Shown here in pieces: positions 698 through 19,140 of a stretch of DNA of 19,140 bases. The number at the start of each line of letters is the position of its first letter. Position 1 is the stretch's first letter. The notes under the pieces are model-generated. The model was not told where the DNA came from and made no database searches. It worked only from the letters and a program-made list of their open reading frames with translations. The stretch is from a virus (lineage: Duplodnaviria; Heunggongvirae; Uroviricota; Caudoviricetes), in the IMG/VR virus record IMGVR_UViG_2778261300_000006, positions 1 through 19,140 of that record; one strand, written 5' to 3'. Made by a program: the position numbers and the translations under genes.

Positions 698-767
698 TGT
701 GTTCCTAACGAGAACATATAGCAGAAATTATTTGCCATTAAGCAATAAAAAATAAGGTGGATAGCCA

Positions 768-1775: not shown

Positions 1776-1777
1776 TC

Positions 1778-4341: not shown

Positions 4342-4343
4342 CC

Positions 4344-4886
4344 ATGAACTGGCCTCAAATCACCCTCATTATTCTGTTCGCCTTTGGTCTGGGCGTAACC
4401 GCCATCAGGCACGGAGAACCACGTAACGATAAATACAGCTTCTGGTGGCAGCTTGCTGGCAACCTGGTGATTGTCTGGCTGCTCTGGTGTGGCGGCTTCT
4501 TCAGTCAGGCCCGCGCAGCGCAGCCTCCGCAGGCTGCGCTGCAGTATCGCGATGATGTGATCCGTAATGCCCGGCTTGAATGGGGACTGTCTGCGCCGGT
4601 GGCCGATTTCGCCGCGCAACTGCATCAGGAAAGCGGCTGGCGACCTGATGCGGTCTCGCCGGCTGGCGCTCAGGGACTGGCGCAGTTCATGCCTGCCACT
4701 GCCGACTGGATAAGCCAGTTGATACCGATGCTGAGCAGTCGTGAGCCGTTTAATCCTGCATGGGCTATCCGGGCGCTGGTCAGCTATGACCGCTGGCTGT
4801 GGCAGCGCGTAAGCGCCGCCAACGACTGCGAGCGTATGGCCATGACACTGTCGGGCTATAACGGTGGTCTACACCCTGCGCCGTAA
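4344..4886 (+). CDS. Signal-anchored lytic transglycosylase (endolysin-like, SLT domain), apparently truncated or frameshifted
   Basis: N-terminal hydrophobic segment (WPQITLIILFAFGLGVTAI) followed by the family-1 SLT signature ...HQESGWRPDAVSPAGAQGLAQFMPATADWI... and YNGG. The ORF stops right after the YNGG motif; see the 4891..5016 feature. Confidence 0.6.
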   Translation: MNWPQITLIILFAFGLGVTAIRHGEPRNDKYSFWWQLAGNLVIVWLLWCGGFFSQARAAQPPQAALQYRDDVIRNARLEWGLSAPVADFAAQLHQESGWRPDAVSPAGAQGLAQFMPATADWISQLIPMLSSREPFNPAWAIRALVSYDRWLWQRVSAANDCERMAMTLSGYNGGLHPAP

Positions 4887-4890
4887 GGGG

Positions 4891-5016
4891 ATGCCTGTTG
4901 CCGACAAGTACGACGGAGCCGGCGGCAAGGTGAAGTACTGCCGTTATACCGATATCTACAAAGTCGCCGTGGTTGGTGGCGATGCCGGGTATCTCATTAC
5001 CGGTATCAGTAAATAA
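4891..5016 (+). pseudogene. +1-frame continuation of the transglycosylase gene (frameshifted 3' portion or separate 41-aa ORF)
   Basis: The +1 frame reads ...YTLRRKGMPVADKYDGAGGKVKYCRYTDIYKVAVVGGDAGYLITGISK and ends at 5016, exactly where the RBS (AAGGAGG) of the next gene begins. The frame switch would lie near the ggtggt run around 4862..4870. Confidence 0.4.
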
Positions 5017-5025
5017 GGAGGCGTT

Positions 5026-5364
5026 ATGGGAACCACTCAGCAGGTCATTCTGATCACAACCGTAACGGCAGGGGCCGCACTGGCACAGCAGCGTTTTGTC
5101 GGGGCAGATAATACCCCCTGTAAAGCCGGTGCCGCAGCGCTCGGGGTTGCCGAAGTGGATGCTGTTACCGGCGACAGCACGCCGGTGAGCGTTCTGGGCA
5201 TTATTGCTGTCGAGGCCGGGGCCGCTGTCAGCCGTGGTGTGGCTGTTCAGTCAGATGCTCAGGCCAGAGCCGTGCCGCAGTCCGGCGACGGTAAATCCTG
5301 TGGTATTGCACTTGATGAAGCCGGGGGTGAAGGCGACGTCATTCGTATCCTGCGCGGGGTGTGA
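5026..5364 (+). CDS. Ala/Gly-rich small structural protein (possibly Mu gp35-like, DUF2190-type)
   Basis: ATG at 5026 with perfect RBS AAGGAGG. 112 aa. Its position immediately upstream of a DUF1320-like gene matches Mu late-operon order. The family call is from memory and weak. Confidence 0.45.
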   Translation: MGTTQQVILITTVTAGAALAQQRFVGADNTPCKAGAAALGVAEVDAVTGDSTPVSVLGIIAVEAGAAVSRGVAVQSDAQARAVPQSGDGKSCGIALDEAGGEGDVIRILRGV

Positions 5365-5365
5365 C

Positions 5366-5812
5366 ATGTACTGCACCCTGGAGGATTTGCTTGCGCAGGT
5401 GCCGGAACGAACGCTGATCGAGCTCACCAGTGAAGAGATGGACTTCGACTCGCCTGCAACAGTGAATACCCGTGTGGTGGACAGCTGTATCCGCTATGCC
5501 GACGAGCTGATTGATGCCCATCTGCGCGGACGCTATATCCTGCCACTGGCAGAGATACCGACTGTTCTGCGGGACATTGCCATCACGCTGGTCCGTTACC
5601 GGCTCTACGCCCGCCGCCCGGAAGGTGACCTCCCGGATACGGTGAAGGATGACCACAAAGAAGCGCTGCGGCAACTCAGGGAGTTACGTGATAACAGGCT
5701 CACGCTGGGGCTGCCGTCCACTCAGAAAGATGTGCCTGAGCCTGGCGAGTTTCGTGTACGCAGCCGCCCGGCCACTTTCGGCGGTCGTGACGGTTTACTG
5801 GAGAAATACTGA
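5366..5812 (+). CDS. Mu gp36-like protein (DUF1320 family; head-tail joining or tail completion)
   Basis: MYCTLEDLL...RYILPLAEIPTVLRDIAITLVRYRLYARRP...HKEALRQLRELRDNRLTLGL matches the recalled DUF1320 pattern (RY.LPL...P.VL..A.D.A.YRLY.RR...YK.A...L..I..G...LG). Start is 2 nt after the upstream stop. Confidence 0.65.
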   Translation: MYCTLEDLLAQVPERTLIELTSEEMDFDSPATVNTRVVDSCIRYADELIDAHLRGRYILPLAEIPTVLRDIAITLVRYRLYARRPEGDLPDTVKDDHKEALRQLRELRDNRLTLGLPSTQKDVPEPGEFRVRSRPATFGGRDGLLEKY

Positions 5813-6276
5813 TGAACGTTCTGCCCGTCCTTGATGCGGTACTGGCCCGGTTACGCGAGAAGCTGCCGCAACTGCAGGTGGAGTACTTCCCGGAGAAACC
5901 GGCTGAATATCGCCTGAACCATCCGGTTGGCGCGTTGCTGCTGAGCTATGCCGGTTCGCGCTTTGACAGGCCGGATGATACCGGTGCGGTGATCCAGTCT
6001 CAGACTATCCAGCTCTGCGTCACGGTGGTCTTCCGCCAGCTCAACGGTAAAAAAGGGGCGATTAATGTCCTGGATGCTGTCCGCCGCATTCTCGGCGGCC
6101 ACACCCCGCCCGGCTGCCGCCGCCGTATCTGGCTGACCCGCGAGGTGTTTATCGGTGAAGTCAGGGGGCTGTGGCAATACGCCCTCGACTTCGCGACTGA
6201 AAGCGTCTTTATCGAAGACAGCGATTTACCGTCCGGCCCGCTGTTAACCGAAGTGAACTATGAGGAAAGCGAGTGA
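5812..6276 (+). CDS. Mu gp37-like virion morphogenesis / tail completion protein (tentative)
   Basis: ATG overlaps the upstream stop (TGATG) and GGAG lies 8 nt upstream. 154 aa. Assignment is by position between the gp36-like gene and the sheath gene in Mu-like order. Confidence 0.45.
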   Translation: MNVLPVLDAVLARLREKLPQLQVEYFPEKPAEYRLNHPVGALLLSYAGSRFDRPDDTGAVIQSQTIQLCVTVVFRQLNGKKGAINVLDAVRRILGGHTPPGCRRRIWLTREVFIGEVRGLWQYALDFATESVFIEDSDLPSGPLLTEVNYEESE

Positions 6277-6527
6277 TGAAAGAATACCGCTATTCCGGCC
6301 CGGCCAGCGGCGTCACGCTGTCGGACGGAACCGAAATCCTGCTCTGGCCGGGGAAGACGGTTTCCCTGCCGGAGGAGCATGAATACGTGAAGGTACTGGT
6401 GGCGCTGAAGCATCTGACGCCGGTACCAGAAGATACTAAACCCGCCGTCACACCGGCTGTGCAGTCACCAAAGCGCAGAAGCAGCAGTGACAGCGAAGTG
6501 AAAACGGAGGACTCCCATGGCAGCTAA
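6276..6527 (+). CDS. Small protein with a disordered, charged C-terminus (Mu gp38-like position)
   Basis: ATG at 6276 overlaps the upstream TGA. 83 aa. The 3' end overlaps the sheath gene start by 11 nt. Confidence 0.4.
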   Translation: MKEYRYSGPASGVTLSDGTEILLWPGKTVSLPEEHEYVKVLVALKHLTPVPEDTKPAVTPAVQSPKRRSSSDSEVKTEDSHGS

Positions 6528-7944
6528 CTATCTGCATGGCGTCGAAACCATTGAGGTGGAAAACGGAGCCCGCCCGGTTAAAACGGTGAAATCTGCCGTT
6601 ATTGGCCTGATTGGTACCGCCCCGATGGGGGATGTCAATACGCTGGTACAGTGCCTGTCTGAGAAAGACGCTGCGGCATTTGGCAGCCAGTTCACCGGCT
6701 TTACCATTCCGCAGGCGCTGGATGCGATTTATGACCATGGTGCAGGCACCGTTCTGGTCATTAACGTACTCGATCCGTCTGTGCATAAAACCGCTGTGGT
6801 CAGTGAGAATGTGTCGTTCGACAAGGCGACAGGCAGAGCCCGGCTGGCTAATCCGGTGGTCGCGCAGCTGGTACTGAAACCGGACAGCGACGGTCAGCCT
6901 TATGTTGAAGGTCAGGACTACTCGCTTGATGCACAGACCGGGGTGATTACTAACCTGGGTAAAAGCATTGCTGCAGATGCAACGGTGAAGGCCAGCTATA
7001 ACTATGCTGATCCGACCAAAGTCACCCCGGCTGATATCATCGGTACCGTTAACGCTGCAGGCAACCGTACCGGCATGAAGCTGCTTAACGACAGTTTTAA
7101 CCTGTTTGGCTACTTCGCCAAAATCCTGATTGCTCCGGTATTCTGCACCCAGAACAGCGTCTCGGTTGAGCTTATCGCCATGGCTGAGAAACTGGGAGCA
7201 GTAACCTATATTGATGCGCCGGTTGGTACCACTTTTGCGCAGGCTCTGGCGGGACGTGGCCCGGAAGGCACCATTAACTTTAATACCAGCTCTGACCGTG
7301 TCCGCCTGTGCTACCCGCATGTGAAGGTATATGACCCGGTGACGAACACGGAGCGTCTGGAGCCACTGAGCCAGCGTGCGGCGGGCCTGCGTGCCAAAGT
7401 CGACCTGGACAAAGGGTACTGGTGGTCATCCTCCAATCAGGAAATTCTGGGGATCACCGGCGTGGAGCGCCAGCTGTCGGCAATGATTGACGATCCGCAG
7501 AGCGAGGTGAACCTGCTTAACGAACAGGGGATCACCACGGTATTCAGCAGTTACGGCAGCGGCCTTCGTCTGTGGGGTAACCGGACGGCAGCATGGCCAA
7601 CGGTCACCCATATGCGTAACTTTGAGAACGTTCGCCGCACCGGTGATGTGATCAACGAGTCCATTCGTTACTTCAGCCAGCAGTACATCGACATGCCGAT
7701 TACTCAGGCGCTGATTGATGCACTGACGGAGTCGGTCAACGCCTACGGTCGCAAAATGACTGGTGATGGTGCGGTACTGGGCTTCCGTTGCTGGTTTGAT
7801 CCGGCCCGCAATCCGGAGACGGAGCTGGCCGCCGGGCACCTGTTGCTGAGCTACAAATATACGCCACCACCGCCGCTGGAGCGACTGACGTTTGAGACTG
7901 AAATCACCTCGGAATACCTGTTAACCCTGAAAGGGGGCAACTGA
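6517..7944 (+). CDS. Contractile tail sheath protein
   Basis: 475 aa with RBS GGAGG 6 nt upstream. Size and position are right for a myovirus sheath, and it is followed immediately by a tube-sized gene. Sequence is reminiscent of Mu L / P2 FI-type sheath proteins. Confidence 0.85.
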   Translation: MAANYLHGVETIEVENGARPVKTVKSAVIGLIGTAPMGDVNTLVQCLSEKDAAAFGSQFTGFTIPQALDAIYDHGAGTVLVINVLDPSVHKTAVVSENVSFDKATGRARLANPVVAQLVLKPDSDGQPYVEGQDYSLDAQTGVITNLGKSIAADATVKASYNYADPTKVTPADIIGTVNAAGNRTGMKLLNDSFNLFGYFAKILIAPVFCTQNSVSVELIAMAEKLGAVTYIDAPVGTTFAQALAGRGPEGTINFNTSSDRVRLCYPHVKVYDPVTNTERLEPLSQRAAGLRAKVDLDKGYWWSSSNQEILGITGVERQLSAMIDDPQSEVNLLNEQGITTVFSSYGSGLRLWGNRTAAWPTVTHMRNFENVRRTGDVINESIRYFSQQYIDMPITQALIDALTESVNAYGRKMTGDGAVLGFRCWFDPARNPETELAAGHLLLSYKYTPPPPLERLTFETEITSEYLLTLKGGN

Positions 7945-8465
7945 TGTCAAAGATTGAGATAAACCGAATCACGAATGCCAACATCTATCTGGATGGTACT
8001 AACCTGCTGGGACGGGCTGAGGAAGTTAAACTCCCCGATGTCTCCATGATTATGCAGGAGCACAAGGCACTGGGGATGGTGGGTAAGGTGGAACTCCCGG
8101 CTGGTTTTGACAAACTGGAAGGCGAAATCAAATGGAACAGCTTTTACCGCGATGCGATGTTGTCTGCCGCGAACCCGTACAAGTCGCTGGCGCTGCAGTG
8201 TCGCTCCAGCGTCCAGCGCTACAGCTCGCAGGGGCTGATCGACGAAATCCCGCTGGTCACCTTCCTGACAATTATGTTCAAGAAGAACCCGCTGGGGACG
8301 TTCAAACAGCACGAGAACGCCGAGTTCTCCAGTAGCTTCACCTGCACGTATATCAGACAGGTACTGGATGGTGAAGAGTTGCTGCAACTGGACTATCTGG
8401 CCAACATCTTCCGCGTCGGTGGCGTTGATCAACTGACTGACTATCGAATCAATATCGGGGGCTGA
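7944..8465 (+). CDS. Tail tube protein
   Basis: 173 aa. ATG overlaps the sheath stop (TGATG) and RBS AAGGGGG lies upstream. Canonical position after the sheath. Confidence 0.8.
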   Translation: MSKIEINRITNANIYLDGTNLLGRAEEVKLPDVSMIMQEHKALGMVGKVELPAGFDKLEGEIKWNSFYRDAMLSAANPYKSLALQCRSSVQRYSSQGLIDEIPLVTFLTIMFKKNPLGTFKQHENAEFSSSFTCTYIRQVLDGEELLQLDYLANIFRVGGVDQLTDYRINIGG

Positions 8466-8467
8466 CG

Positions 8468-8749
8468 GTGAGTGTTGAACTGACTGACAAAGGAGGGCGA
8501 TGTGCGTCACTGGGCATGTCAAATGGTACGTGGTTTACCCTCCTTGATATTCCGGGGGTGGAGACCCTCTTTAATACCCGTAAAACCAATGACCCGATTG
8601 ACTGCACACGTTCAAAGGCCCGCAAACTGGCCGATTTGATTGAAGCATGGGAGCCGCCCGACCAGTGGTTCTCCGGCACCGGCAACTCTGAGGGAAAGGC
8701 GCTTCTCATCGCTTTCCTGCGTAACTGCAAGGGTTTTCGCACTTGCTGA
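8468..8749 (+). CDS. Hypothetical small protein between tube and chaperone genes
   Basis: 93-aa ORF with GTG start at 8468 (alternative in-frame ATG at 8516). No recognisable family. Followed directly by a terminator-like hairpin. Confidence 0.3.
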   Translation: MSVELTDKGGRCASLGMSNGTWFTLLDIPGVETLFNTRKTNDPIDCTRSKARKLADLIEAWEPPDQWFSGTGNSEGKALLIAFLRNCKGFRTC

Positions 8750-8756
8750 CATCACA

Positions 8757-8778
8757 GGGGCTCCGGCCCCTTCTTTTT
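8757..8778 (+). terminator. Rho-independent terminator-like hairpin inside the tail operon
   Basis: GGGGC-tccg-GCCCC stem-loop (8757..8770) followed by TTCTTTTT (8771..8778). Confidence 0.45.
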
Positions 8779-8846
8779 AATCCCCTTTAATATCCGTCAC
8801 GTCCACCGCCAGACATACTGCTCTGAATTTACAAAGGAGTATGATC

Positions 8847-9182
8847 ATGTCACAGACCCAGTCCGATACTTTTACGCTGTCTTATCCTTTCACCACTGCT
8901 GCAGGTACCAGAATTGAACAGATTGAACTGAAACGCCTGACAGTAAAAGACCTGAAGCAGGTGCGCAAAATCAACAAAGACCCGACAGACTGGGACGAAC
9001 CACTGATTGCCCGTAGCACCGGTATCCTCCCGGAAGACCTCGATAACATGGATCTTGCCGACTATATGGAGCTGCAGAAACGATTTCAGAAAATCACTGG
9101 GCTGGGCAAGAGCGACAAAAACACTGATGCAGGTGCAGGGCCTGCTGGCGAGATGGTTCAGGTTTCAACCGGGGGAGATTGA
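8847..9182 (+). CDS. Tail assembly chaperone (P2 gpE / lambda gpG-type), upstream frame
   Basis: ATG at 8847 with AAGGAG 7 nt upstream (the 8841 ATG is too close to the RBS). Small acidic protein directly upstream of the tape measure gene, with an overlapping out-of-frame ORF, the hallmark of the conserved chaperone frameshift pair. Confidence 0.65.
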   Translation: MSQTQSDTFTLSYPFTTAAGTRIEQIELKRLTVKDLKQVRKINKDPTDWDEPLIARSTGILPEDLDNMDLADYMELQKRFQKITGLGKSDKNTDAGAGPAGEMVQVSTGGD

Positions 9183-9264
9183 TGCCCTCGATACTGACGA
9201 TCTGGAGATGTGGCTGGAGCAGGCTGAAGAGCAAATCAAAAGCGAGTTCGGCGACAATCAGTAA
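9007..9264 (+). CDS. Frameshift extension of the tail assembly chaperone (E'-like C-terminal extension)
   Basis: ORF in the +1 frame relative to 8847..9182, overlapping its 3' end. It encodes an acidic helical tail (...IDALDTDDLEMWLEQAEEQIKSEFGDNQ). It has no plausible independent start (TTG in the track). Only the 3' part (roughly 9170..9264) would be translated after the shift. Confidence 0.45.
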   Translation: MPVAPVSSRKTSITWILPTIWSCRNDFRKSLGWARATKTLMQVQGLLARWFRFQPGEIDALDTDDLEMWLEQAEEQIKSEFGDNQ

Positions 9265-9357
9265 CAACGTATCACTTAACAGCCGCCAGTCGCGGCTGTT
9301 CTGCATGGGTTTCAGACACTTCCCTTCCGTTTTTTTTGCTTTCAGAGGATAGCCACC

Positions 9358-11823
9358 GTGGCCAGTGAATTTTCAGTCGGCGTCATTATTGGCGGCATTG
9401 TCGGGAGCAGCTTCCGCTCAGCCGTCAGTGGCACCCGACGCGCCCTTGATTCCCTTGGTGATACCTCCCGCCGTCTGCAGGAACGCCAGAATGCCTTAAC
9501 CCGGGCAACAGAACGTTATGGTCAACTGGGTTCTTCCCGGATGCAGCATCTCAACAGCGAGTTGCTGCGGGTAAGCCGCACCATGGAGCAAATTGAACGT
9601 CAGCAGCGCCGTCTGTCAGCAGTATCAGCCACCGGTGATGCGTTGAAGGCTAACCGCCTGGCGCTCTATGGTCAGGGTGCAGAAACCTATGCTATTGGCA
9701 GAACGCTGGGCGCACCGGTCATGGCCTCGGTTAAACAATATGCCTCGTTTGAATCACAGTTGCGGGATATCAGTGTCACAGGAGACCTGGATGCAAAACA
9801 GGAACGTGCAATTGGCCAGGCTATCAGACAGGCCTCGCTGAAGGTTAACCAACTGCAGGAGTCTCTGTTAGGGGGAGTCGGACAATTAGTTGCTGATGGT
9901 ATGGCCCCCGAACGGGCAGCAACGTTTGCAGAGATGCTTGGAAAGACCGCTACAGCAACCAAAGCCGATATGACCGACCTTGCCAAAATGACTTATGCCT
10001 TCAGCGATGCACTCAGAATCACTGATGCGAAAGAACTTGAACAGGCGTTTGGTATTGCGGCAACAGGAGCCAAACTTGGGTCATTTGAGCTGAAGGATAT
10101 GGCAAAAGCATTACCCGGTATGGCTAAAGCCTTCGCTGCTCGTGGTATTTATGGAAAAGATGCGATTACCCAGATTGTTGCCAGTCTGGAGGTCGGTAAA
10201 GGTAGTGGCTCTGCAGAGGAAGCGGTCACCAATATGTCCAACTGGCTGGCAGCAATGGGCCGCGGAGATACCATCCAGAAATATGCTAAAGCCGGGGTGG
10301 ATTACCAGGGGTCAATGCAGAATTACGTCGCTCAGGGTTTTTCGCAGTACGAAGCTTCACTGATGATTGCCAACCGTTTTATCGACAGTAAAGGCAAAGC
10401 GTTCTTGCAGCAATGGAAAGCTGCAGGAGCAAGAGGCGATCAGGAAGGTCAGCAGAAACTCATGGAGTCATTTGGTCTGGCTGAGGTCTTTACCGATATT
10501 CAGACTGTCAACCATTTACTGTCAATGCGACAGGGCTGGGATAAATACCTTTCCAGTAAGCAGGAAATGAATACTCCGGCTGCAATGTCTACCCTGGATA
10601 AGGATGCTGCAAAGCAGAATGATACGCTTGAAGGTCGCTGGCGCAGAATGCAGATCGGCTTTAATGATTCTGCTATCAGCATCGGGCAATCCTTGCGTCC
10701 GGCTTTGCTCCAGTTGGGTGAAACATTTATTCCTTTAATGGACAGTGTTGGCAAATGGATAGCGGCAAATCCGCAGCTCGTCAGCAGCACCATAAAGGTT
10801 GTGGGCGCATTACTCGCTTTCAGGATGGCCACTATCGGTCTCAAGCTTGGGCTGAATCTCCTTCTTTCCCCCTTTGTAAGCGTCTGGAAAAATGCTGTTT
10901 TACTTCGGGCCAACTGGCTTCGTCTGACGCTCGCACTGGGGGAAGGCGGTAAACTCCGCTGGCTGGTGACAGGCTTTGGTGCTGTCGCCAGAGGAGCCAG
11001 AACACTGGGTGGTGTGCTCTCAGGGGGGCTGGTTCGCGGAATTATGAGCGCCGGGCGTGCCGTTCTCTGGATTGGCCGGGCGCTGCTGATGAATCCCATC
11101 GGTCTCGTTATCACCGCCGTCGCGGCAGCAGCTTACCTTATCTACCGCAACTGGGGCGCAGTCAGTAGCTGGTTTAAACAGCGCTGGGCTGACATTCAGG
11201 AAGCCTTTAACGGCGGCATCGTGGGAATTGGTAAACTGCTGGTTAACTGGTCTCCGGCTGGTCTGCTTTATAAAGCCTTTGCGGCTGCGCTGAAATATCT
11301 CGGCGTTGATCTGCCGGCGAAATTCACCGACTTCGGTGGTCATCTTATTGACGGGTTGATAAATGGCATCAGAAACAAATGGGCGTCACTCAAAACCAGC
11401 GTAACCGGAATGGGTGACAGCATCAGTGACTGGTTCAGCGAAAAGCTGGGCATCCATTCACCGAGTCGCGTGTTTATGGGCTTTGGTGACAATATCGCGC
11501 AGGGTGCCGCCATTGGCCTGCAACGGACCACTCCGCTTGCTGCACTGGCCGGGCAGCGCCTGGCCGCTGAAATGACACCGGATGTTCCCCGTATCCCGTC
11601 GCCGGAAATCATGGCTGCCGGATATTCAGGCCGTGGCGCAACTGCAACCGGCGGTGGAGCGTCTGGCGGTATCCAGGTCAGCTTTAATCCTCAGTTTTTC
11701 CTCAATGGTAAGGAAACCGCAGCGCCTGCCGGGCTGGCTGGTGCCCTGAATATGAGCCTGCATGAGCTGGAAAAAATGCTGGAGCGTCTGCTGGCTCAGA
11801 AACAACGTAAGGAGTACAGCTGA
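9358..11823 (+). CDS. Tail tape measure protein
   Basis: 821 aa. GTG start with AGAGGA 8 nt upstream. Long helical N-terminal region, Gly/Ala-rich hydrophobic central segments and overall architecture typical of tape measure proteins. Confidence 0.85.
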   Translation: MASEFSVGVIIGGIVGSSFRSAVSGTRRALDSLGDTSRRLQERQNALTRATERYGQLGSSRMQHLNSELLRVSRTMEQIERQQRRLSAVSATGDALKANRLALYGQGAETYAIGRTLGAPVMASVKQYASFESQLRDISVTGDLDAKQERAIGQAIRQASLKVNQLQESLLGGVGQLVADGMAPERAATFAEMLGKTATATKADMTDLAKMTYAFSDALRITDAKELEQAFGIAATGAKLGSFELKDMAKALPGMAKAFAARGIYGKDAITQIVASLEVGKGSGSAEEAVTNMSNWLAAMGRGDTIQKYAKAGVDYQGSMQNYVAQGFSQYEASLMIANRFIDSKGKAFLQQWKAAGARGDQEGQQKLMESFGLAEVFTDIQTVNHLLSMRQGWDKYLSSKQEMNTPAAMSTLDKDAAKQNDTLEGRWRRMQIGFNDSAISIGQSLRPALLQLGETFIPLMDSVGKWIAANPQLVSSTIKVVGALLAFRMATIGLKLGLNLLLSPFVSVWKNAVLLRANWLRLTLALGEGGKLRWLVTGFGAVARGARTLGGVLSGGLVRGIMSAGRAVLWIGRALLMNPIGLVITAVAAAAYLIYRNWGAVSSWFKQRWADIQEAFNGGIVGIGKLLVNWSPAGLLYKAFAAALKYLGVDLPAKFTDFGGHLIDGLINGIRNKWASLKTSVTGMGDSISDWFSEKLGIHSPSRVFMGFGDNIAQGAAIGLQRTTPLAALAGQRLAAEMTPDVPRIPSPEIMAAGYSGRGATATGGGASGGIQVSFNPQFFLNGKETAAPAGLAGALNMSLHELEKMLERLLAQKQRKEYS

Positions 11824-12707
11824 TGTTTGCCGTACTGGGTGATATTGAGTTTGAACTGATTACCTACTGGGACGGCTTCGAGGCCACGTTTGGCGTCGAT
11901 TATGCGGAGCATGCCCGCATCGAGGGTAAACCCGGCCTGCAGTTTGTCGGCGACAGGCTGGACGAAATCCAGATAAGCCTGGTCTTCCATCAGCATTATT
12001 GTGTGCCCGACGTGGAGCTGGCGAGAGTGCGAACAGCCATGAAGGCCCATCAGGCACTGGCGCTGGTCTTCGGCAACGGTGACTATCGCGGCTGGTTCGT
12101 GATTACCGATGTGACCGCAACCAGCGAGCAGACAGACAGCACCGGTAACGTGCTGGCTGTCAGTGCCACCGTGTCTCTCCGGGAATACACCGGTGACCCG
12201 AAAAATCCTCTGCAACCGCCGGCAATACGCAGGCAGGTTCCCGGTGCCGGAGCTGTATCGGGTGCTGTTCCATCGCCTTCCGGGGTGGCGCAGTTCGTCC
12301 GTAACGGCGTCAACTATGCGAAACAGGCGCAGTCTGTACTCCAGACCACTATCAGTGCCGTTCGGGTGGCGCAGAAAATGAAGGGTAACCCCGTTGTCGC
12401 GCTGACCCGTGTGCCTGGACTGATGAGCGGACTGGGTAATATATCCGGAGCTCTGGGGAAAAGTGTTCCGGCGTTTAATGCACTCTCTGAATCCATGCCC
12501 GATGCCATCAGTCTGGCCAGAACAGCCAGTGAGGCAGCCACGTATGTACAGCAGGCGCAGTCGGCGCTGAGTGGTGTGGACAAAAGAAATATTGCAGGTG
12601 CTCTGGATACCGTTTCCGGGCAGCTTAACGCCGCCGGCACAGCATTCAACCGCATGTCTCCGGGATTAAGTGCAATGGCCGCCAGAATACTGACGAGGAG
12701 TGTGTGA
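11823..12707 (+). CDS. P2 gpU-like tail protein (DNA-circulation-type N-terminal domain)
   Basis: ATG overlaps the tape-measure stop, with AAGGAG 8 nt upstream. N-terminus MFAVLGDIEFELI resembles gpU-family starts. Position is after the tape measure. Confidence 0.55.
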   Translation: MFAVLGDIEFELITYWDGFEATFGVDYAEHARIEGKPGLQFVGDRLDEIQISLVFHQHYCVPDVELARVRTAMKAHQALALVFGNGDYRGWFVITDVTATSEQTDSTGNVLAVSATVSLREYTGDPKNPLQPPAIRRQVPGAGAVSGAVPSPSGVAQFVRNGVNYAKQAQSVLQTTISAVRVAQKMKGNPVVALTRVPGLMSGLGNISGALGKSVPAFNALSESMPDAISLARTASEAATYVQQAQSALSGVDKRNIAGALDTVSGQLNAAGTAFNRMSPGLSAMAARILTRSV

Positions 12708-12919
12708 TGTTTCTTGAACATATTACCCGTGACGGAGAGCGCTGGGATTCGCTGGCATGGCAGTACTACGGTGACCCGCTGGGCTATCCCCGGATTATTG
12801 CAGCCAATCCGCACGTGGCCATTACGCCGGTGCTGCCCTCCGGGGTGTTGTTACTGATCCCGGTTATTGAGGCTGAAGATGCCCGCACAGAAGAGGATGT
12901 TGCTCCATGGCTGAGATAA
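12707..12919 (+). CDS. Tail protein X-like (P2 gpX family)
   Basis: 70 aa. ATG overlaps the upstream stop, with GAGGAG 6 nt upstream. Pattern W..LAWQYYGDPLGY..IIAANP......LP.G..L.IP resembles the gpX / LysM-like family. Confidence 0.6.
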   Translation: MFLEHITRDGERWDSLAWQYYGDPLGYPRIIAANPHVAITPVLPSGVLLLIPVIEAEDARTEEDVAPWLR

Positions 12920-14061
12920 ACAGTACTGCGCAAGACGTATCAGCGTTAACCGGCGTCAGCGATGTGCTGACGCCGGTGTTCACTCTGTGGTATCTGCAGA
13001 AAAATATCACCTCTGATATCGCGCCTTATGTCACCCGTGTGACCTGGAGCGATAACATCAAAAATGAGTCCGATACCATTGAGGTGGAGCTGGATGACAC
13101 CGATGGTCGCTGGCTGGATAAGTGGTATCCGGGCAAGGGTGACACGCTGACGCTGAAAATGGGTTATCAGGGCGAGAAACTGCTGTCCTGCGGTACATTC
13201 TCAATAGACGAGATCGAAGTGAGTTCGCCCGCGTCCGTTGTCGCTATCCGTGGGGTGGCCACCTCGGTTAACAGTGCTCTGCGGACTAAATCCAGCCGTG
13301 GTTTTGAGAACACCACGCTGGCAGCTGTTGCGGGGCGGATTGCCAGAAAGCACCGACTGAAACTGGTGGGCAGCATTGAGTCCATCAAAATCGACCGGGT
13401 GACCCAGTATGCTGAAACCGACGTGGGTTTTCTGCGCCGGCTGGCCAGCGAGTATGGTTATGCAGTGAAAGTGGTCAGTGACCAGTTGATTTTTTCTCAT
13501 CTGGCCACACTGCGCAGTCAGGAGCCGGTCAGGCAGTTAAAACCGCAGGATGTGGCCCGCTTTTCCCTGCGTGACACCATCAACCGGGTCTATAAATCTG
13601 CAAAGGTAAAACACCAGAAAAGCAGCAGTAAAAAACTGATCGTCTACGAAGCTGATGGTGGTACCCGTGAAAGCGACAAAAAGCTCAAAGGTGGTAAGGT
13701 TACCAGCGCTGACTCACTTAAAGTTAACAGCCGTGTCAGCGACCCGGACAGTGCCCGGATTAAAGCGGATTCAGCACTGGCCAGACATAACGAATACCAG
13801 CAGAACGGCTCCCTGACGCTGACGGGAACGCCTCAACTGACAGCAGGCAACAAAATTGAACTGGTGGGCTTTGGACAGTTATCCGGTCCATGGCTGATAA
13901 TCACTGCCCGCCATGCGTTTGAGCGTAACAGCGGCTACACCACAGAGCTGGAAGTGGCACGGGGGCCAGTCACAAGAGGGAAAAAACAAAAAACTCAGAA
14001 ACTCACGGTTTATCACCCGGATGGCAGTACATCGACGGTGATTAAGGAGAAGAAAAAATGA
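12907..14061 (+). CDS. P2 gpD-like / Mu P-like tail protein (baseplate hub-type)
   Basis: 384 aa. Position between the gpX-like and spike genes. Lys-rich C-terminus. 3' end overlaps the next start (ATGA). Confidence 0.65.
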   Translation: MAEINSTAQDVSALTGVSDVLTPVFTLWYLQKNITSDIAPYVTRVTWSDNIKNESDTIEVELDDTDGRWLDKWYPGKGDTLTLKMGYQGEKLLSCGTFSIDEIEVSSPASVVAIRGVATSVNSALRTKSSRGFENTTLAAVAGRIARKHRLKLVGSIESIKIDRVTQYAETDVGFLRRLASEYGYAVKVVSDQLIFSHLATLRSQEPVRQLKPQDVARFSLRDTINRVYKSAKVKHQKSSSKKLIVYEADGGTRESDKKLKGGKVTSADSLKVNSRVSDPDSARIKADSALARHNEYQQNGSLTLTGTPQLTAGNKIELVGFGQLSGPWLIITARHAFERNSGYTTELEVARGPVTRGKKQKTQKLTVYHPDGSTSTVIKEKKK

Positions 14062-14585
14062 CTGGTGTCACCCGTCAGGTCGGTACGGTCAGTGCCGTTG
14101 ATGCCGACAGGGTTCAGGCCCGCGTTCGTCTGCCTGAATGCGATAATCTGCGCACAAACTGGCTTAACGTGCTACAGCGCAATACCCAGGATAACAAGGA
14201 TTACTGGCTCCCTGACGTGGGGGAGCAGGTTGAGGTGCTGCTCGATGCCAACGGCGAGGATGGTGTTATTCTGGGCGCGGTGTACTCAGACGTCGATAAA
14301 CCGCCGTTCAGTGATAAAAACGTCCGGGGTACGAAATACGCTGATGGCGCGGAGTTCAGTTATAACCGCGCGACCCATACGCTGACGGTCAGAGGAGGTA
14401 TTGAGCGTATCGTGGTGGAGGTTGCCGCTGATATCTCTCTCAAAGGGAAAAAACTCGACCTCACGGGAGTTACCACGATCAACGGCCCCGCGACACTCAA
14501 TGGTGATCTGGAAATCAACGGAAGCGCCCATGCAACGGGTAACATATTTGCTGATGGTCAGAACTCTAATCACCATTCCCATTGA
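14058..14585 (+). CDS. Baseplate central spike protein (gpV-like)
   Basis: 175 aa with AAGGAG RBS. gpV-like N-terminal OB-fold region. His-rich C-terminal apex (...GQNSNHHSH). Confidence 0.75.
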   Translation: MTGVTRQVGTVSAVDADRVQARVRLPECDNLRTNWLNVLQRNTQDNKDYWLPDVGEQVEVLLDANGEDGVILGAVYSDVDKPPFSDKNVRGTKYADGAEFSYNRATHTLTVRGGIERIVVEVAADISLKGKKLDLTGVTTINGPATLNGDLEINGSAHATGNIFADGQNSNHHSH

Positions 14586-14641
14586 ACCTTCTTAAACGCC
14601 TTTAATATCGGCGCTTACTTCCCGGGGGCAATACTGCCTCC

Positions 14642-14989
14642 ATGAAAACGACCTCAGTATTCTGGCAACCAGCTCTGCAGGCTCCCGGCGAAATCGTCCG
14701 GGGGCTGGATGATATCCGGCAGTCCATCCAGATCATCCTGCGGACTCCCCGCGGCAGCGACCCGCATCGCCCGGAGTTCGGCAGCAATCTGCACCTTTAT
14801 ATCGACTGGCCTGTCGGCCGGGCCATTCCGCATGTGGTTCGCGAATCCGTCGATGCCATCAGGCGCTGGGAACCCCGCTGCCAGCTTATGTCGGTTAAAC
14901 CCGCCGTCGACGGCGAACATCTTACGCTCCGGGTGAGCTGGAAAGGCTCAGACGGACAACCCCGTACTCAGGAACTGCTATGGCGCTGA
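14642..14989 (+). CDS. Baseplate wedge protein (gpW / gp25-like)
   Basis: 115 aa. Pattern ...IRQSIQIILRTPRGSDPHRPEFGSNLHLYIDWP... is typical of the GPW_gp25 family. 3' end overlaps the J-like start. Confidence 0.75.
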   Translation: MKTTSVFWQPALQAPGEIVRGLDDIRQSIQIILRTPRGSDPHRPEFGSNLHLYIDWPVGRAIPHVVRESVDAIRRWEPRCQLMSVKPAVDGEHLTLRVSWKGSDGQPRTQELLWR

Positions 14990-16083
14990 CAGAACCCGAT
15001 TTTATTGAACGCGATGCCGATAAAATCACGGCAGAAATGATTGCGAAGTATGAAGCGGATACCGGAAAAACGCTGTACCCGGCACAGGCTGAACGTCTGC
15101 TGATTGACCTGTGGGCCTATCGCGAAATGCTGGTCAGGGTGGCAGTACAGGAGGCGGCGAAGCAGAATCTGGTCGCTTTTTCCCGTGAGCCGATGATTGA
15201 TTACCTCGGTGAACTGGTCGGTGTATACCGCCTTGCCGCGCAGCCTGCCACCACCACACTTCAGTTCTCTGTGGATGAGGCACTGGCCATTGATGTGCTG
15301 ATCCCGGCAGGCACCCGCGTCAGCGCTTCCGACAGTATTATTTTTGCCACCGATACAGACGTGGTGCTGAAGGCCGGATTGCTGCTGGTCAATGTCACGG
15401 CCACCTGTACCGAGCCGGGTACCGCTGGCAACGGCTGGCAACCGGCGCAGGTCAGTCAGTTACTCGATGAGATTGATAACATTGACCTGCTGGTGACCAA
15501 TCTGACGGCCAGCTCTGGCGGTTCAGAGCAGGAAGACGATGACCGGCTCCGGGAGCGTATCAGGCTGGCCCCGGAGTCATTCACCAATGCCGGAAGCCGT
15601 GGTGCATACCGTTTTCATGCTATGGGGGCGCATCCCGGCATTGTCGACGTTGCTGTTCTTTCTCCCGCTCCCGGCACTGTCGAGCTGTATCCGCTGCTCA
15701 GCACTGGTCTGCCGGACAGCAGTATCCTCACTCTGGTAGAGAGTTTCTGTTCTGACGAAAAAGTCAGACCACTCACTGATACCGTGCGGGCTAAAACACC
15801 TGTTCAGGTGGATTACACCATTGAAGCCAGGATTACGATCTATCGTGATCAGGATGCAAGGTTGGTAAAGGACAACGCTAACAGCGCCATACAGAACTGG
15901 GTGGCATCCCGTACCGCCACGCTGGGGCGCGATATTGTTCCCAGCCAGATTATCAGCGTGTTGTCCGTTTCCGGGGTGTACCAGGTCGAACTGGTGACAC
16001 CGGCACTGAGGGTGGTGGCAGAAAACGAATGGGCAAACTGTACGGCGATCACTCTTAACATGACCGGGGTGTCCGATGGCTAA
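14980..16083 (+). CDS. Baseplate J-like protein
   Basis: 367 aa with AGGA RBS. Position and size match gpJ / Mu gp47. Translationally coupled to both neighbours. Confidence 0.8.
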   Translation: MALTEPDFIERDADKITAEMIAKYEADTGKTLYPAQAERLLIDLWAYREMLVRVAVQEAAKQNLVAFSREPMIDYLGELVGVYRLAAQPATTTLQFSVDEALAIDVLIPAGTRVSASDSIIFATDTDVVLKAGLLLVNVTATCTEPGTAGNGWQPAQVSQLLDEIDNIDLLVTNLTASSGGSEQEDDDRLRERIRLAPESFTNAGSRGAYRFHAMGAHPGIVDVAVLSPAPGTVELYPLLSTGLPDSSILTLVESFCSDEKVRPLTDTVRAKTPVQVDYTIEARITIYRDQDARLVKDNANSAIQNWVASRTATLGRDIVPSQIISVLSVSGVYQVELVTPALRVVAENEWANCTAITLNMTGVSDG

Positions 16084-16654
16084 GGTGCTACAACTCCCGC
16101 CACCGCTTGAGGGTGATATCAGTCTCAGAACGCTGGGAAGACTGGCCGGACGGCTGGATAACATCGACCTGAGCGTACTGATGGTCGGTCTCGTCGATAT
16201 TGTCGACAGTTCCGCGCTGCCATGGCTTGGCGAGCAGTTCTCGCTGTTCGGCGATGGCTGGGAACTGGCGGAATCGGACGATGTACGCCGCATGCTTATC
16301 AAATCCGCTATCGAGCTACACCGCTATAAAGGAACACCGTGGTCAATCCGGGAAATTATCCGCCGTTTTGGCTTCGGCGAAGTGGATCTGATTGAAGGTA
16401 CGGGGCAGATTGGCTATGACGGCAGACACACGTACAACGGGCTTTTCGTCCATGGTGATGCACAAGCCTGGGCAGTCTATCGCGTCATCTTTCAACAACC
16501 CATCACTAACGATCAGGCGGCGCTGTTACGTCAGACGCTTGCTGCCTTTGCTCCGGCTCGCTGTCATCTGGCAAGTCTGGAATATCAGTCTGTCGCCATT
16601 CGATACAACAGTACTACCTGTTATGACGGTAGTTACAACCACGGGAGCAGTTAA
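16076..16654 (+). CDS. Baseplate/tail protein (P2 gpI-like, Mu gp48-like)
   Basis: 192 aa. ATG overlaps the J stop. Immediately upstream of the tail fiber gene. Confidence 0.7.
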   Translation: MAKVLQLPPPLEGDISLRTLGRLAGRLDNIDLSVLMVGLVDIVDSSALPWLGEQFSLFGDGWELAESDDVRRMLIKSAIELHRYKGTPWSIREIIRRFGFGEVDLIEGTGQIGYDGRHTYNGLFVHGDAQAWAVYRVIFQQPITNDQAALLRQTLAAFAPARCHLASLEYQSVAIRYNSTTCYDGSYNHGSS

Positions 16655-16656
16655 TT

Positions 16657-17622
16657 ATGGCAAATCTACCCGAAACCCCGCAGTGGGAAAGCGGCATCTA
16701 CCAGATTGAGGTCTCTGACCCCGTTCTGGGCGGACCTGACGGAATTTCTAACCGCCAGGCTAAACAACTGGCCAGCCGAACGTCATACCTCAAACAGAAG
16801 GTCGAAAAAAGCGGAACAGACCTGGCTGCACATATCGCGGCAGTTGACCCGCATACCCAGTACGCGACGAAAGCCAGTCCGACATTCACCGGCACACCAA
16901 CAGCACCTACACCTGCAAATGGTGATAACAGCAAAAAGCTGGCGACGACGGAGTTTGTGGCCAAAGCACTTGCGGCACTTGCAGGCAGCGCCCCTGAGAC
17001 ACTGGATACGCTTAAAGAGCTGGCTGACGCTCTCGGTAATGATCCAAACTTTGCGACTACGGTACTGAACAAGCTGGCGGAAAAGCTGGCTAAAGACCAG
17101 AACGGCGCAGATATTCCTGAGCCTGCGCTGTTTGTCAAAAACCTTGGTTTGGGGGAAGGCTCTGCACTGCCCGTTGGTGTGCCTGTTCCGTGGCCCTCAG
17201 CCACACCGCCAGCAGGGTGGCTGAAATGTAACGGAGCAGCATTTTCTTCTGAAATGTACCCCAAACTGGCAAAGGCTTACCCCGCGAATAAATTACCGGA
17301 TTTACGGGGTGAGTTTATTCGTGGCTGGGATGACGGGCGCGGGATTGATCCTGGTCGCCAGTTGCTTGGGTGGCAGAAAGGTACTTTGGTTGGTGGTAGA
17401 GATGACAATGATGCCGCAGTTGATATTTCATATATGAGTAACGGAAATAGTATTGATTACGGTGGCGATAAAACATTTTCAACGAATTACCGGAGTGATT
17501 ATTTATGGTATGCAATTCTGGGTAACGTCACTGGTCGTGCCAAAGCTGCTTTAAGTGGGTCCTTTTTTAATGTAACTCGTCCACGCAACATCGCCTTTAA
17601 CTACATTGTGAGAGCAGCATAG
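16657..17622 (+). CDS. Tail fiber protein: constant N-terminal part fused to variable C-terminal cassette 1 (tail-collar domain)
   Basis: 321 aa. The constant region contains the conserved fiber segment SPTFTGTPTAPTPANGDNSKKLATTEFVAKALAALAGSAPETLDTLKELADALGNDPNFATT (P2 gpH-like). The variable part begins at about 17146 with the tail-collar-type motif GWLKCNGAAFSSEMYPKLAKAYP...LPDLRGEF and ends ...RPRNIAFNYIVRAA. Confidence 0.8.
   Translation: MANLPETPQWESGIYQIEVSDPVLGGPDGISNRQAKQLASRTSYLKQKVEKSGTDLAAHIAAVDPHTQYATKASPTFTGTPTAPTPANGDNSKKLATTEFVAKALAALAGSAPETLDTLKELADALGNDPNFATTVLNKLAEKLAKDQNGADIPEPALFVKNLGLGEGSALPVGVPVPWPSATPPAGWLKCNGAAFSSEMYPKLAKAYPANKLPDLRGEFIRGWDDGRGIDPGRQLLGWQKGTLVGGRDDNDAAVDISYMSNGNSIDYGGDKTFSTNYRSDYLWYAILGNVTGRAKAALSGSFFNVTRPRNIAFNYIVRAA
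17132..17157. other. Putative Gin/Hin/Cin-type recombination crossover site A, at the constant/variable junction of the fiber gene
   Basis: ttgtcaaaaacc-tt-ggtttgggggaa: a 12+2+12 bp arrangement whose left half matches the recalled hix/gix half-site (TTCTTGAAAACC / TTCCTGTAAACC) at 9 of 12 positions. Homology with the downstream repeat copy starts exactly at the central dinucleotide. Confidence 0.5.
17144..17345 (+). repeat. Repeat copy A (5' conserved part of variable fiber cassette 1)
   Basis: About 200 bp nearly identical to 17628..17829 (direct) and to the reverse complement of 19035..19140 (inverted; truncated by the window end). Confidence 0.85.
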
Positions 17623-17641
17623 AAACGTTGGTTTGGGGGAA
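17616..17641. other. Putative crossover site B (direct orientation relative to site A)
   Basis: agcatagaaacg-tt-ggtttgggggaa: right half identical to site A, left half diverged and overlapping the stop codon of cassette 1. Confidence 0.4.
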
Positions 17642-17829
17642 GGCTCTGCACTGCCCGTTGGTGTGCCCGTTCCGTGGCCCTTAGCAACACCACCAACGGG
17701 CTGGCTGAAATGTAACGGTGCAGCATTTTCTTCTGAAATGTACCCCAAACTGGCAAAAGCCTACCCCGCGAATAAATTACCGGATTTACGCGGAGAATTT
17801 ATCCGTGGCTGGGATGATGGGCGAGGAAT
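17628..17829 (+). repeat. Repeat copy B (5' conserved part of silent cassette 2)
   Basis: Direct repeat of 17144..17345 with a few substitutions; the two copies diverge after ...GRGID. Confidence 0.85.
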
Positions 17830-18109
17830 TGATGCGGCACGCGCTTTATTGAGCATTCAAAACGGGATGTTGGAAAAACACCGCCATATTGTTGTAGCTA
17901 ACGATGGATATGACACAAAAGATGAATGGGAGTTGGCTACGATTTTCAAAAAAACATATACACAAGGCAGGGGGCTTGATGCCACAAATACAGGAGGGAG
18001 TTTGACTCCATCACCAACGCTTCATTCACGAGGAAGTATTGGTAACACAGGTGGTAGTGAAACCCGCCCCCGCAATATTGCATTTAACTATATCGTGAGG
18101 GCGGCTTAG
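17630..18109 (+). CDS. Silent alternative tail-fiber C-terminal cassette 2 (no own start codon)
   Basis: Open frame encoding GEGSALPVGVPVPWP...GWLKCNGAAFSSEMYPKLAKAYPANKLPDLRGEFIRGWDDGRGID, then a unique middle, then the conserved end ...RPRNIAFNYIVRAA. There is no ATG or RBS (the track start is TTG at 17633), so it would need to be joined to the constant region to be expressed. Confidence 0.55.
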   Translation, partial: GLGEGSALPVGVPVPWPLATPPTGWLKCNGAAFSSEMYPKLAKAYPANKLPDLRGEFIRGWDDGRGIDAARALLSIQNGMLEKHRHIVVANDGYDTKDEWELATIFKKTYTQGRGLDATNTGGSLTPSPTLHSRGSIGNTGGSETRPRNIAFNYIVRAA

Positions 18110-18115
18110 TTATAT

Positions 18116-18733
18116 TCAACTGGCTGCTGCCAGAGGCATTTCCGGCCAGTTGATATCCGGTGCAGTGCTGATGTCAGTCGCATTAAGCACATCTATGAAA
18201 TCAAGCACGGCGTTTAGTTTTTCCGTCTCCTGGGGCGTCAATCGGCGTCCGGCTCGTAGTTTGAGATTTATAAGCTCAACAGATGCCATTGCCTGTTCCT
18301 CAAGTTGCTGACGATGCGCTCCGGCAGCTTCCAGTTCTGCTGCGTGCTGTCGTCCCGCATCTGTCACCCAGGTCTCACCATCCCAGACATCATAGATAGT
18401 AGCTGGCTGTTTCACCGTCGTATCAGGAGGGTAATCTCCCGGTTGTGTGATTTGCACAGCGTTACCATTCTCTGTGCTGTAAACCGTTTCGCCTCTGTGG
18501 TCTGGAACATATTTCCAGATGTTCTGGTCGGTATCACGACAGACAGCGAAGCCGGGGCGTTTTTCTGGTGGCGCGTCAATGCATGAGTGAGCCGGAATTC
18601 CAACACCATAAGCGAGATACTCAACAGTGGCAGAGAGATATTCACGGTTTTCAGCATCGTAGTTATAAACGGTAATATCGCCTGCAGTTATAGCGATACC
18701 ATTCTGATCAAGTACTGCAGCAGCATTATTCAT
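18116..18733 (-). CDS. Tail fiber assembly chaperone (Mu U/U'-like)
   Basis: 205 aa. C-terminal ...INWPEMPLAAAS resembles the conserved C-terminus of Mu U / Tfa-type fiber assembly proteins (recall). ATG overlaps the stop of the inverted cassette 3 (TAATG). Confidence 0.75.
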   Translation of the reverse strand: MNNAAAVLDQNGIAITAGDITVYNYDAENREYLSATVEYLAYGVGIPAHSCIDAPPEKRPGFAVCRDTDQNIWKYVPDHRGETVYSTENGNAVQITQPGDYPPDTTVKQPATIYDVWDGETWVTDAGRQHAAELEAAGAHRQQLEEQAMASVELINLKLRAGRRLTPQETEKLNAVLDFIDVLNATDISTAPDINWPEMPLAAAS

Positions 18734-19140
18734 TAAGTAGCCCTTACAATATAGTTAAACGCAATATTACGGGGGCGGTTTTCCGTTCCTGTATTCCCTC
18801 CGTTGGCACCTAATCTATAAACACCACGAGTGCCAATAGCACGTAGTGAAGATGGAACTTTTACACCTGACTCATCTGTTTTAACAATCCCGCCATCACC
18901 GTATGTAGCCAGTATACCAGGGTTTGTTCCTGCACGGGTGCTATTTGCGGCAAGCCCTTCACCAGTCCATAACTCCATATAGTGAATATGATCTATAACC
19001 GAATGTGATTGTGCATTAAGCAAGGAACGCCCTGAATCAATTCCCCGCCCGTCATCCCAGCCGCGAATAAACTCACCCCGTAAATCCGGTAATTTATTCG
19101 CGGGGTAGGCTTTTGCCAGTTTGGGGTACATTTCAGAAGA
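18733..19140 (-). CDS. Inverted alternative tail-fiber C-terminal cassette 3 (partial; 5' end beyond window)
   Basis: Minus-strand frame encoding ...SSEMYPKLAKAYPANKLPDLRGEFIRGWDDGRGID-(unique middle)-...NRPRNIAFNYIVRAT. Open to the window edge. Followed by its own chaperone on the same strand. Confidence 0.65.
   Translation of the reverse strand, partial: SSEMYPKLAKAYPANKLPDLRGEFIRGWDDGRGIDSGRSLLNAQSHSVIDHIHYMELWTGEGLAANSTRAGTNPGILATYGDGGIVKTDESGVKVPSSLRAIGTRGVYRLGANGGNTGTENRPRNIAFNYIVRAT
19035..19140 (-). repeat. Repeat copy C (inverted; truncated by window end)
   Basis: The reverse complement matches 17730..17829 and 17246..17345. The inverted crossover site itself would lie about 85 bp beyond the window. 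Confidence 0.8.

Follow-up and report, generated by a model that had tools for sequence, protein, structure and literature searches.

A Gin/Min-type inversion array of alternative tail-fibre tips in a decayed Mu-like prophage of Escherichia coli

The DNA described here is a stretch of 19,140 nucleotides (IMG/VR record IMGVR_UViG_2778261300_000006, positions 1 to 19,140), referred to below as the window, and the element that it carries is a decayed Mu-like prophage of Escherichia coli. The 3' end of the window is a Gin/Min-type inversion array, in which alternative receptor-binding tips are swapped on a single tail-fibre gene. This gene occupies the open reading frame at 16657-17622 (plus strand, 321 aa), where a constant N-terminal part, Sc (16657..17131), is read through a crossover site into the first of three tip cassettes, which are named D, B and C after their variable middles. 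Cassette D (17144..17622, plus strand; stop TAG at 17620-17622) is in frame with Sc and is the expressed tip, consisting of a Collar domain (Pfam, E 1.3e-13), a variable middle and the ending RPRNIAFNYIVRAA. Cassette B (17628..18109, plus strand; Pfam Collar, E 4e-14) lies in direct orientation and is silent, its open reading frame (17624-18109) having no ATG at the 5' end and a TTG, inside the crossover site, as the only candidate start. Cassette C (18733->19140, minus strand) is silent and inverted, with roughly the first 35 of its codons, and its crossover site, past the window end; cut in this way, it gave no match to Pfam, where D and B match Collar.

Between B and C lies a gene for a tail-fibre assembly chaperone, tfa (18116..18733, minus strand; Pfam Caudo_TAP, E 1e-25), which belongs to cassette C only: its ATG overlaps the stop of C (TAATG), so that it is translationally coupled to C, and in the window arrangement it is antisense to the fibre operon. 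The stops of cassette B and tfa are 6 nt apart and mark the point at which the two orientations converge. A chaperone gene accompanies cassette C alone, and the other five tips of the six-cassette arrays described below are without one.

The three cassettes have in common a 5' block of about 200 bp and the 3' end RPRNIAFNYIVRA, and their middles are unrelated. These common parts appear as a direct repeat (17139-17358 / 17623-17842; 220 nt, 90% identity) and as two inverted repeats that run into the window end (17245-17367 / 19018-19140, 123 nt, 90%; 17729-17833 / 19036-19140, 105 nt, 93%), with a further inverted repeat of 50 nt (86%) joining the 3' ends of B and C (18059-18108 / 18734-18783). 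Repeats of such length and identity cannot be due to chance. When nine cassette types are aligned, 57 invariant residues fall within the first 69 positions and the RPRN-AFNYIVRA end is likewise invariant, with middles that cannot be aligned. A diversity-generating retroelement was considered and dismissed, the variable middles being unrelated sequences and not point-mutated copies. A preliminary description of the window had already recognized three cassettes with a near-identical 5' block, a conserved 3' end and unrelated middles, the first fused to the constant part, the second direct and without a start codon and the third inverted; the repeats, the open reading frames and the translations, which reproduce the peptides quoted there, agree with it on all of these points. 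The Caudo_TAP gene and the 26-bp crossover sites were absent from that description.

Two such sites lie in the window, both of the 26-bp Gin/Hin type, with imperfect 12-bp inverted half-sites around a 2-bp core. Crossover site 1, TTGTCAAAAACC-TT-GGTTTGGGGGAA (17132..17157, plus strand; core TT at 17144-17145), lies at the constant/variable junction of the fibre gene and encodes FVKNLGLGE. It matches the gix site of Mu (TTATCCAAAACC-TC-GGTTTACAGGAA) at 20 of 26 positions, and the two occupy the same reading frame of the fibre gene; residues 137-167 of Sc also match the Mu fibre protein S just ahead of the G-segment boundary (PDB 5yvq/8ju3). Crossover site 2, AGCATAGAAACG-TT-GGTTTGGGGGAA (17616..17641, plus strand; core at 17628-17629), has a degenerate left half that is made up of the 3' end of cassette D and its stop. 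Sites 1 and 2 are in direct orientation, and the inverted partner lies past 19140.

The same site anatomy is seen in 13 related loci (numbered L below), which include ten assemblies obtained by looking up the exact 321-aa fibre protein. In the window and in these loci alike, xxxxxxxAAAC(C/G)-TT-GGTTTGGGGGAA stands ahead of each cassette, and the left half of site 1 is constant in 14 of 14 sequences compared, whichever cassette is fused. An inner site takes its left half, in which just AAAC is retained, from the 3' end of the cassette before it, and its right half moves together with the 5' block of the cassette after it. The outermost site, on the invertase side, reads AAGACGAAAACG-TT. In the relatives the sites are always oriented +..+ -..-, and among the clonal isolates described below exchange between them is conservative.

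Directly after the outermost site, 12 of the 13 related loci carry a 190-aa gene with Resolvase and HTH_7 domains (9 of the 10 exact-fibre assemblies, the exception being L013), which is a small serine recombinase of the Din family; the window ends before the corresponding position. The protein is identical in 10 of the 12 relatives with an intact array end and differs by 1 aa in the other two. It matches the Gin structures 4m6f (E 6e-91) and 3uj3 (E 3e-90) in the PDB, contains the catalytic Ser9 in the context YIRVSTNDQ, and shows 75% identity to Gin, 73% to Cin and 79% to the Fels-2 invertase. In NCBIfam it gave sub-threshold matches only, and the fibre and tfa gave none. Invertases of ~90-kb E. 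coli plasmids are 96.3-96.8% identical to it, and the one such plasmid that was examined is IncY and P1-like. In Gin and Hin systems, the invertase gene contains a Fis-dependent enhancer, acting in cis, near its 5' end. In the present gene the 5' 240 nt align with gin, nt 20-75 being highly conserved. Fis and an enhancer are presumably required here as well.

Another arrangement of the same invertase is seen in the IncY P1-like plasmid p28Eco12 (L104 4501-7573), where a near-identical gene directly follows a single 2.4-kb fibre gene. The outer site alone is retained there, and the locus looks like a collapsed and locked array.

The relatives sit at differing chromosomal sites, and their arrays hold two to six crossover sites each. 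The closest complete relative, in strain A31 (L001), is a ~38-kb Mu-like transposable prophage inserted in rlmI, with genes for Mor, gp16, Gam, an ExeA/MuB-like protein, a DDE transposase, a DUF935 portal and Mu F and G, and with the invertase as its last gene. Among loci that encode the identical 321-aa fibre, the set {D,B,C,H,E,A} is permuted into six signed orders: +D+B-C-H-E-A in L004, +D+A+B-C-H-E in L006, +D+A+E+H+B-C in L007 and L011, +D+C-B-E-H-A in L009, +D+H+C-B-A-E in L010 and +D+E+A+H+C-B in L013. The order in the window is +D +B (-tfa -C ...), and those in other relatives are +A+B-C-D-E in A31, +B-C in strain 2014C-3075 (L002) and +F+B-C-G-A-H in strain 12089. Sc is 98.7-100% identical across all relatives irrespective of cassette order, and in 13 of 13 relatives B and C-tfa stand tail to tail with tfa downstream of C.

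Of these loci, L004 shows best what would be expected beyond the window. Its variable region is 100% identical to that of the window over 2009 nt; the site of cassette C comes ~100 bp after the equivalent of position 19140 and is followed by cassettes H, E and A and then by the invertase, which starts ~1.6 kb past that position. By this comparison, the element of the window would still have cassettes H, E and A and an invertase of its own.

Two features of the draft relatives stand apart from the common pattern. In L013 (13562-14920, draft), cassette B, at the outer end of the array, is joined to the fibre gene of another prophage, one of the true Mu type, with Phage_Mu_Gp48 and Baseplate_J as neighbours and no invertase at the array end. 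Either the invertase has inverted DNA between the two prophages, or the assembly is misjoined in the 5' block that they share. In L005 and L008, silent C-type cassettes (I and J) are frameshifted, for example by a 1-nt deletion 29 nt after the core in L008, and these may be either unexpressed copies in decay or sequencing errors.

It could be argued that the cassettes are independently expressed paralogous fibre or tip genes that supply several receptor-binding proteins per particle, and annotation pipelines do call each cassette a separate 'phage tail protein' coding sequence. Each cassette, however, starts inside a crossover site and in frame with the preceding stop, without an ATG and with only the TTG in the site, and lacks the N-terminal part needed for attachment to the baseplate. 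A promoter and terminator scan of 16000-19140 found none above the expectation from shuffled sequence, which argues against separate expression. The same cassette is fused to Sc in some genomes and unfused in others: cassette D, which is the expressed tip here, is inverted and unfused in A31, and cassette B, which is silent here, is joined to the constant part in 2014C-3075. Separate expression of the cassettes is therefore hardly credible.

The permuted orders can be compared with a model in which recombination occurs solely between a plus- and a minus-oriented site. Such a model has two invariants, namely that the order is always +..+ followed by -..- and that the units B and C-tfa at the convergence point never part, and both hold at every locus examined. 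For six cassettes, enumeration gave exactly 240 reachable isomers, which include all of the observed orders, these being 1-5 inversions apart. With D fixed in the first position, only 48 of 3840 signed orders are permitted, so the fit of the model is not trivial. The 8-kb constant part of the window is 100% identical to that of L010, whose cassette order differs, and that of L004, with the same arrangement as the window, is 98.75% identical; it follows that the order changes faster than point mutations accumulate.

Rearrangement among natural isolates is seen most cleanly in a sister prophage with cassettes A, B, C and a fourth, whose invertase differs by 2 aa. It sits at one yehR-side insertion site in six complete genomes (8178 x3, DEF2, DEF10 and FEA3), which show 0 mismatches in 3499 positions per flank and four arrangements of the array. 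The total length of the array is constant at 2525 nt, and it consists of three units of 470, 437 and 1610 nt bounded by TT cores. Whichever way round it lies, each unit is 100% identical among all of the isolates, without gain or loss of a base; the variation came with the DEF2, DEF10 and FEA3 isolates. Across all loci, the exchange point can be placed in an interval that opens at the base 5' of the core and closes at +21 nt at most. Sequence up to and including that base goes with position, belonging to Sc, to the flank on the invertase side or to the 3' end of the cassette before; sequence from at most +21 nt onward goes with the cassette.

These boundaries also bear on the possibility that RecA-dependent homologous recombination between the inverted 5' blocks drives the rearrangement. 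The blocks, at ~200 bp and 90-93% identity, would be enough for RecA, and some of them are mosaic between lineages. However, exchange is confined to ~22 bp around the TT core despite ~180 bp of further homology, which argues against RecA-mediated exchange as the driver; the units in the clonal isolates run exactly from core to core at 100% identity; the sequences that precede the core at the Sc junction and in the flank on the invertase side are not homologous outside the half-site; and the orientation and convergence-point invariants are kept in every locus examined. We regard RecA as a very improbable driver of the rearrangement.

We read this region, with a probability of about 0.85, as the left portion of an array for multiple inversion by a Din-family (Gin/Cin/Pin/Hin/Min) enzyme, comparable in type to p15B-Min. 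In this system, a serine invertase of ~190 aa, encoded just outside the array, would recombine 26-bp sites with a non-palindromic TT core, of which the fibre gene has one where its constant and variable parts meet and every promoterless tip cassette has one at its 5' end. Recombination would be confined to oppositely oriented sites, so that each event would invert a segment spanning the convergence point, place another cassette in frame behind the constant N-terminus and reshuffle the remainder, and six sites would give 240 isomers and six fibre proteins. The window would represent a state with tip D expressed, from which C, H, E and A would each be reached by one inversion and B by two. The tips presumably bind different receptors.

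Several observations weigh against this reading or limit it. The window stops inside cassette C, so that its own inverted partner site and invertase are outside it, and the element is degraded, so that the invertase could be lost as well. A simple Fis-motif scan of the invertase gene found no conserved pair at the expected spacing. The evidence for switching comes from a comparison of assembled natural isolates, of which the three 8178 assemblies have one and the same arrangement. Mosaics between lineages occur in some 5' blocks, such as the B and A blocks of L007 and L009, which means that gene conversion or homologous recombination acts on the blocks too.

The preliminary description had placed the region beyond the two-state Mu G segment and close to Min, and this is borne out by the boundary sites, the Gin-family invertase of complete relatives, the permutations and the core-to-core rearrangement. 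Its other proposals need adjustment. At least three specificities had been put forward, and the window does hold three cassettes, but the closest relatives carry six. A serine invertase had been expected just beyond 19140; an invertase adjoins the array in the relatives, but in L004 three other cassettes come before it. A programmed switch of target range fits this type of system, but it is not a demonstrated property of this element, which is a remnant without early operon and head genes.

The state of this copy is best seen against A31. The match to the SLT endolysin gene covers window 4480-4870, and for window 4869-17412 the alignment picks up again 8.5 kb downstream, so that the copy has a clean 8.5-kb deletion with its junction at ~4870 (window 4338-5030), where SLT just after YNGG is joined to the 3' end of the capsid gene. 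Lost with this deletion are the 3' end of SLT, the Rz-like genes, terminase (both subunits), portal, MuF, G, protease/scaffold and the greater part of the capsid gene. Its junction is absent from all 5426 complete E. coli genomes searched, and the truncated 180-aa SLT occurs in three public contigs, among them L103, a Logan contig of the same clone that is 100% identical to window 1-14886. In L103, window base 1 abuts a truncated flgL, of which about 268 FlgL codons are read into phage DNA (L103 4872-5690), and this junction means that the early operon has also been deleted; it is gone in its entirety, with the Ner-like gene, transposase, MuB-like gene, Gam and Mor. What is left comprises the repressor, the holin, SLT with its ES, GLAQF and YNGG motifs, and a full tail module in the order sheath, tube, tape measure, U, X, D, V, W, J, I and fibre, with baseplate J at 14980-16083 and gpI at 16076-16654 directly upstream of the fibre gene; head and early genes are missing. 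With no genes for transposition or for heads, the element is immobile and unable to build a head, and its host is probably non-motile. Judging from the biology of Mu, the late genes can probably not be switched on, Mor being absent.

Such losses raise the question of whether the array is a frozen relic, that is, a Min-type array whose invertase has been lost or silenced in this remnant, with +D+B-C fixed and without consequence. This would be in keeping with the loss of 8.5 kb of lysis and head genes relative to A31 and of the early operon with Mor and transposase, with the abutment on a truncated flgL, with an invertase region that lies outside the window, and with a deletion variant found in no complete E. 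coli genome. On the other side, the invertase is kept in 12 of 12 relatives with an intact array end, and the order in the window differs from that in L010 even though the 8-kb constant part is 100% identical, which points to recent rearrangement. Complementation among Gin, Cin, Pin and Hin is established: invertases of the Din family can use one another's sites in trans, and more than one of them is often present in E. coli. The action of PinQ on e14 is a published example of such action in trans. A frozen array is thus unlikely, and under the preferred reading of a Din-family multiple-inversion array the DNA switch in this copy may still be operating; a host-range phenotype of this copy is doubtful.

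A different fate would be domestication, in which the remnant at flgL still uses the six-way switch, either as an R-type tailocin of switchable spectrum or as a source of free fibre tips that block the adsorption of other phages. Blocking of this kind has been reported for PinQ/StfE2 in e14. An R-type tailocin keeps its tail, lysis and regulatory genes, is without head or replication genes and is expressed as killing particles; the gene content of the window fits this, with a repressor, a holin, SLT and a complete tail module. However, the Mor activator and the Rz-like genes are deleted, and the variant is rare (3 contigs); domestication is a long shot.

The remnant also carries a pair of cargo genes between the repressor and the Dam methylase (window 768-2983), in place of two different hypothetical genes of A31. 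One encodes an NA37 nucleoid-associated protein (335 aa) and the other a 401-aa protein that matches no Pfam family and resembles anti-phage models only weakly and below threshold (NCBIfam DS1_2_antiphage, 76 bits, cutoff 315; PADLOC KwaA, E 8e-5). This pair may be a defence moron.

Both the window and L103 break off in the repeats of the array, L103 at ~window 17173 in the first 5' block and the window in the 5' block of cassette C. In Escherichia sp. MOD1-EC7003, contigs of 1-1.7 kb consist of cassettes alone (L023 and L026). Such arrays evidently fragment short-read assemblies systematically at their repeats.

In structural terms, the C-terminal half of the fibre matches the distal tip of T4 gp37 (PDB 2xgf, E 6e-15), with a collar domain and the terminal NIAFNYIVR strand, and it also matches the collar domains of short tail fibres. 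The six-cassette arrays thus hold six compact T4-gp37-like tips, with ~90-130 aa variable and with a common collar scaffold, C-terminal strand and 26-bp junction. Cassettes B, C, E and H contain single HxH motifs, which we take to recall the metal-binding motifs of the gp37 needle.

The cassette family is found across the Enterobacterales in a survey of species-representative genomes, where the best 80 loci have one cassette in 56 cases, two in 18, three in 4 and four in 2, which places the six-cassette E. coli arrays at the upper end. An exact 60-mer over the D/B junction had no match among the GTDB species representatives. The conserved 5' block is present in 2010 of 5426 complete E. coli genomes, and also in P1-like phages and in the lambdoid 'side tail fiber' gene of HK106.

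As to what these findings mean, multi-state fibre switches allow a temperate phage or a tailocin to hedge across receptors and are natural kits of interchangeable tips, whose cassettes occur in Mu-like prophages, P1-like phage-plasmids and lambdoid side-fibre genes. The present set of tips is unusually large and is a handy panel for receptor mapping and for engineering the specificity of phages and tailocins. Arrays of this kind also break short-read assemblies and mislead annotation, silent cassettes being called genes. The understanding of Din-family inversion is unchanged by the findings, since multi-state fibre inversion by Din-family invertases is already established and the mechanism is textbook; their value lies in clean evidence from natural isolates and in a compact tip panel.

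Among the known systems, the R64 shufflon, described by Komano in 1999, is said to use Rci, a tyrosine recombinase acting on sfx sites, to vary the C-termini of PilV. The array is like it in that multiple inversions pick one of several C-termini of a surface adhesin, and the preliminary description had called the region shufflon-like; the likeness is an analogy only, and membership of the R64 type is ruled out, the adjacent recombinase being a serine recombinase of the resolvase/invertase family and the sites gix/hix-like.

The nearest likeness is to Min of the IncY P1-related plasmid p15B, reportedly a multiple-inversion system described by Iida in 1990 and by Sandmeier, Iida and Arber in 1990-1992. 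Both systems have several sites in the 3' region of a fibre gene, a set of alternative 3' ends and a Din-family invertase beside the array, and the model used here gives 240 isomers from six sites, a number also attributed to p15B. Orthology with the p15B sequence (X62121) would be in line with an invertase ~96% identical to those of ~90-kb E. coli plasmids, and with a published invertase from a P1-like plasmid that shows 98.5% identity to Min. The same outer site, AAGAC(T/G)AAAACG-TT-GGTTTGGGG, adjoins the invertase of a P1-like phage. The two systems differ in that the host replicon here is a chromosomal Mu-like, BcepMu-type transposable prophage with a P2-type tail module, as opposed to a P1-type plasmid prophage, and in that the constant fibre part is short (~160 aa) and a chaperone gene is present for one of six cassettes.

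Other examples of the same principle, Gin-driven fibre switching, have been described in Enterobacter phage FRphi, with a three-isoform fibre locus and a receptor assigned to one isoform (PMC13418256), and in a P2-like prophage of enteropathogenic E. coli (EPEC) E2348/69, with a three-repeat, four-variant fibre locus (PMC4272514). In these systems, it has been shown by experiment that isoforms coexist (by long reads or PCR), that deletion of gin locks the locus and that receptor use (FhuA) is isoform-specific (PMC13418256; PMC4272514). They have three inverted repeats or C-termini and four DNA variants, whereas the array described here has six cassettes and another phage backbone. In carotovoricin Er, inversion of the fibre is mediated by Ein (Nguyen 2001; PMC13195805), and this is like the present element in that an invertase-switched fibre tip is found in a head-less phage-tail element; carotovoricin, however, is a conserved and expressed tailocin, and the element of the window is a rare deletion derivative without the transcriptional activator. 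Literature searches found no description of this particular array lineage.

The Mu G segment with Gin, beside which stand the P1 C segment with Cin and the e14 P segment with Pin, is like the present system in having an invertase of 75% identity and homologous sites in the same fibre reading frame, with the invertase as the last gene before the prophage end, as gin is apart from com/mom, and the central B/tfa-C segment behaves as a G segment. In Mu, however, there are just two sites and two states, and each tip has its own chaperone (S-U / S'-U'), as opposed to up to six sites, 240 states and one chaperone here, and the T4-gp37-like collar tips are unrelated to Mu Sv. What is new, set beside these systems, is a Min-type six-cassette array in a Mu-like chromosomal prophage lineage.

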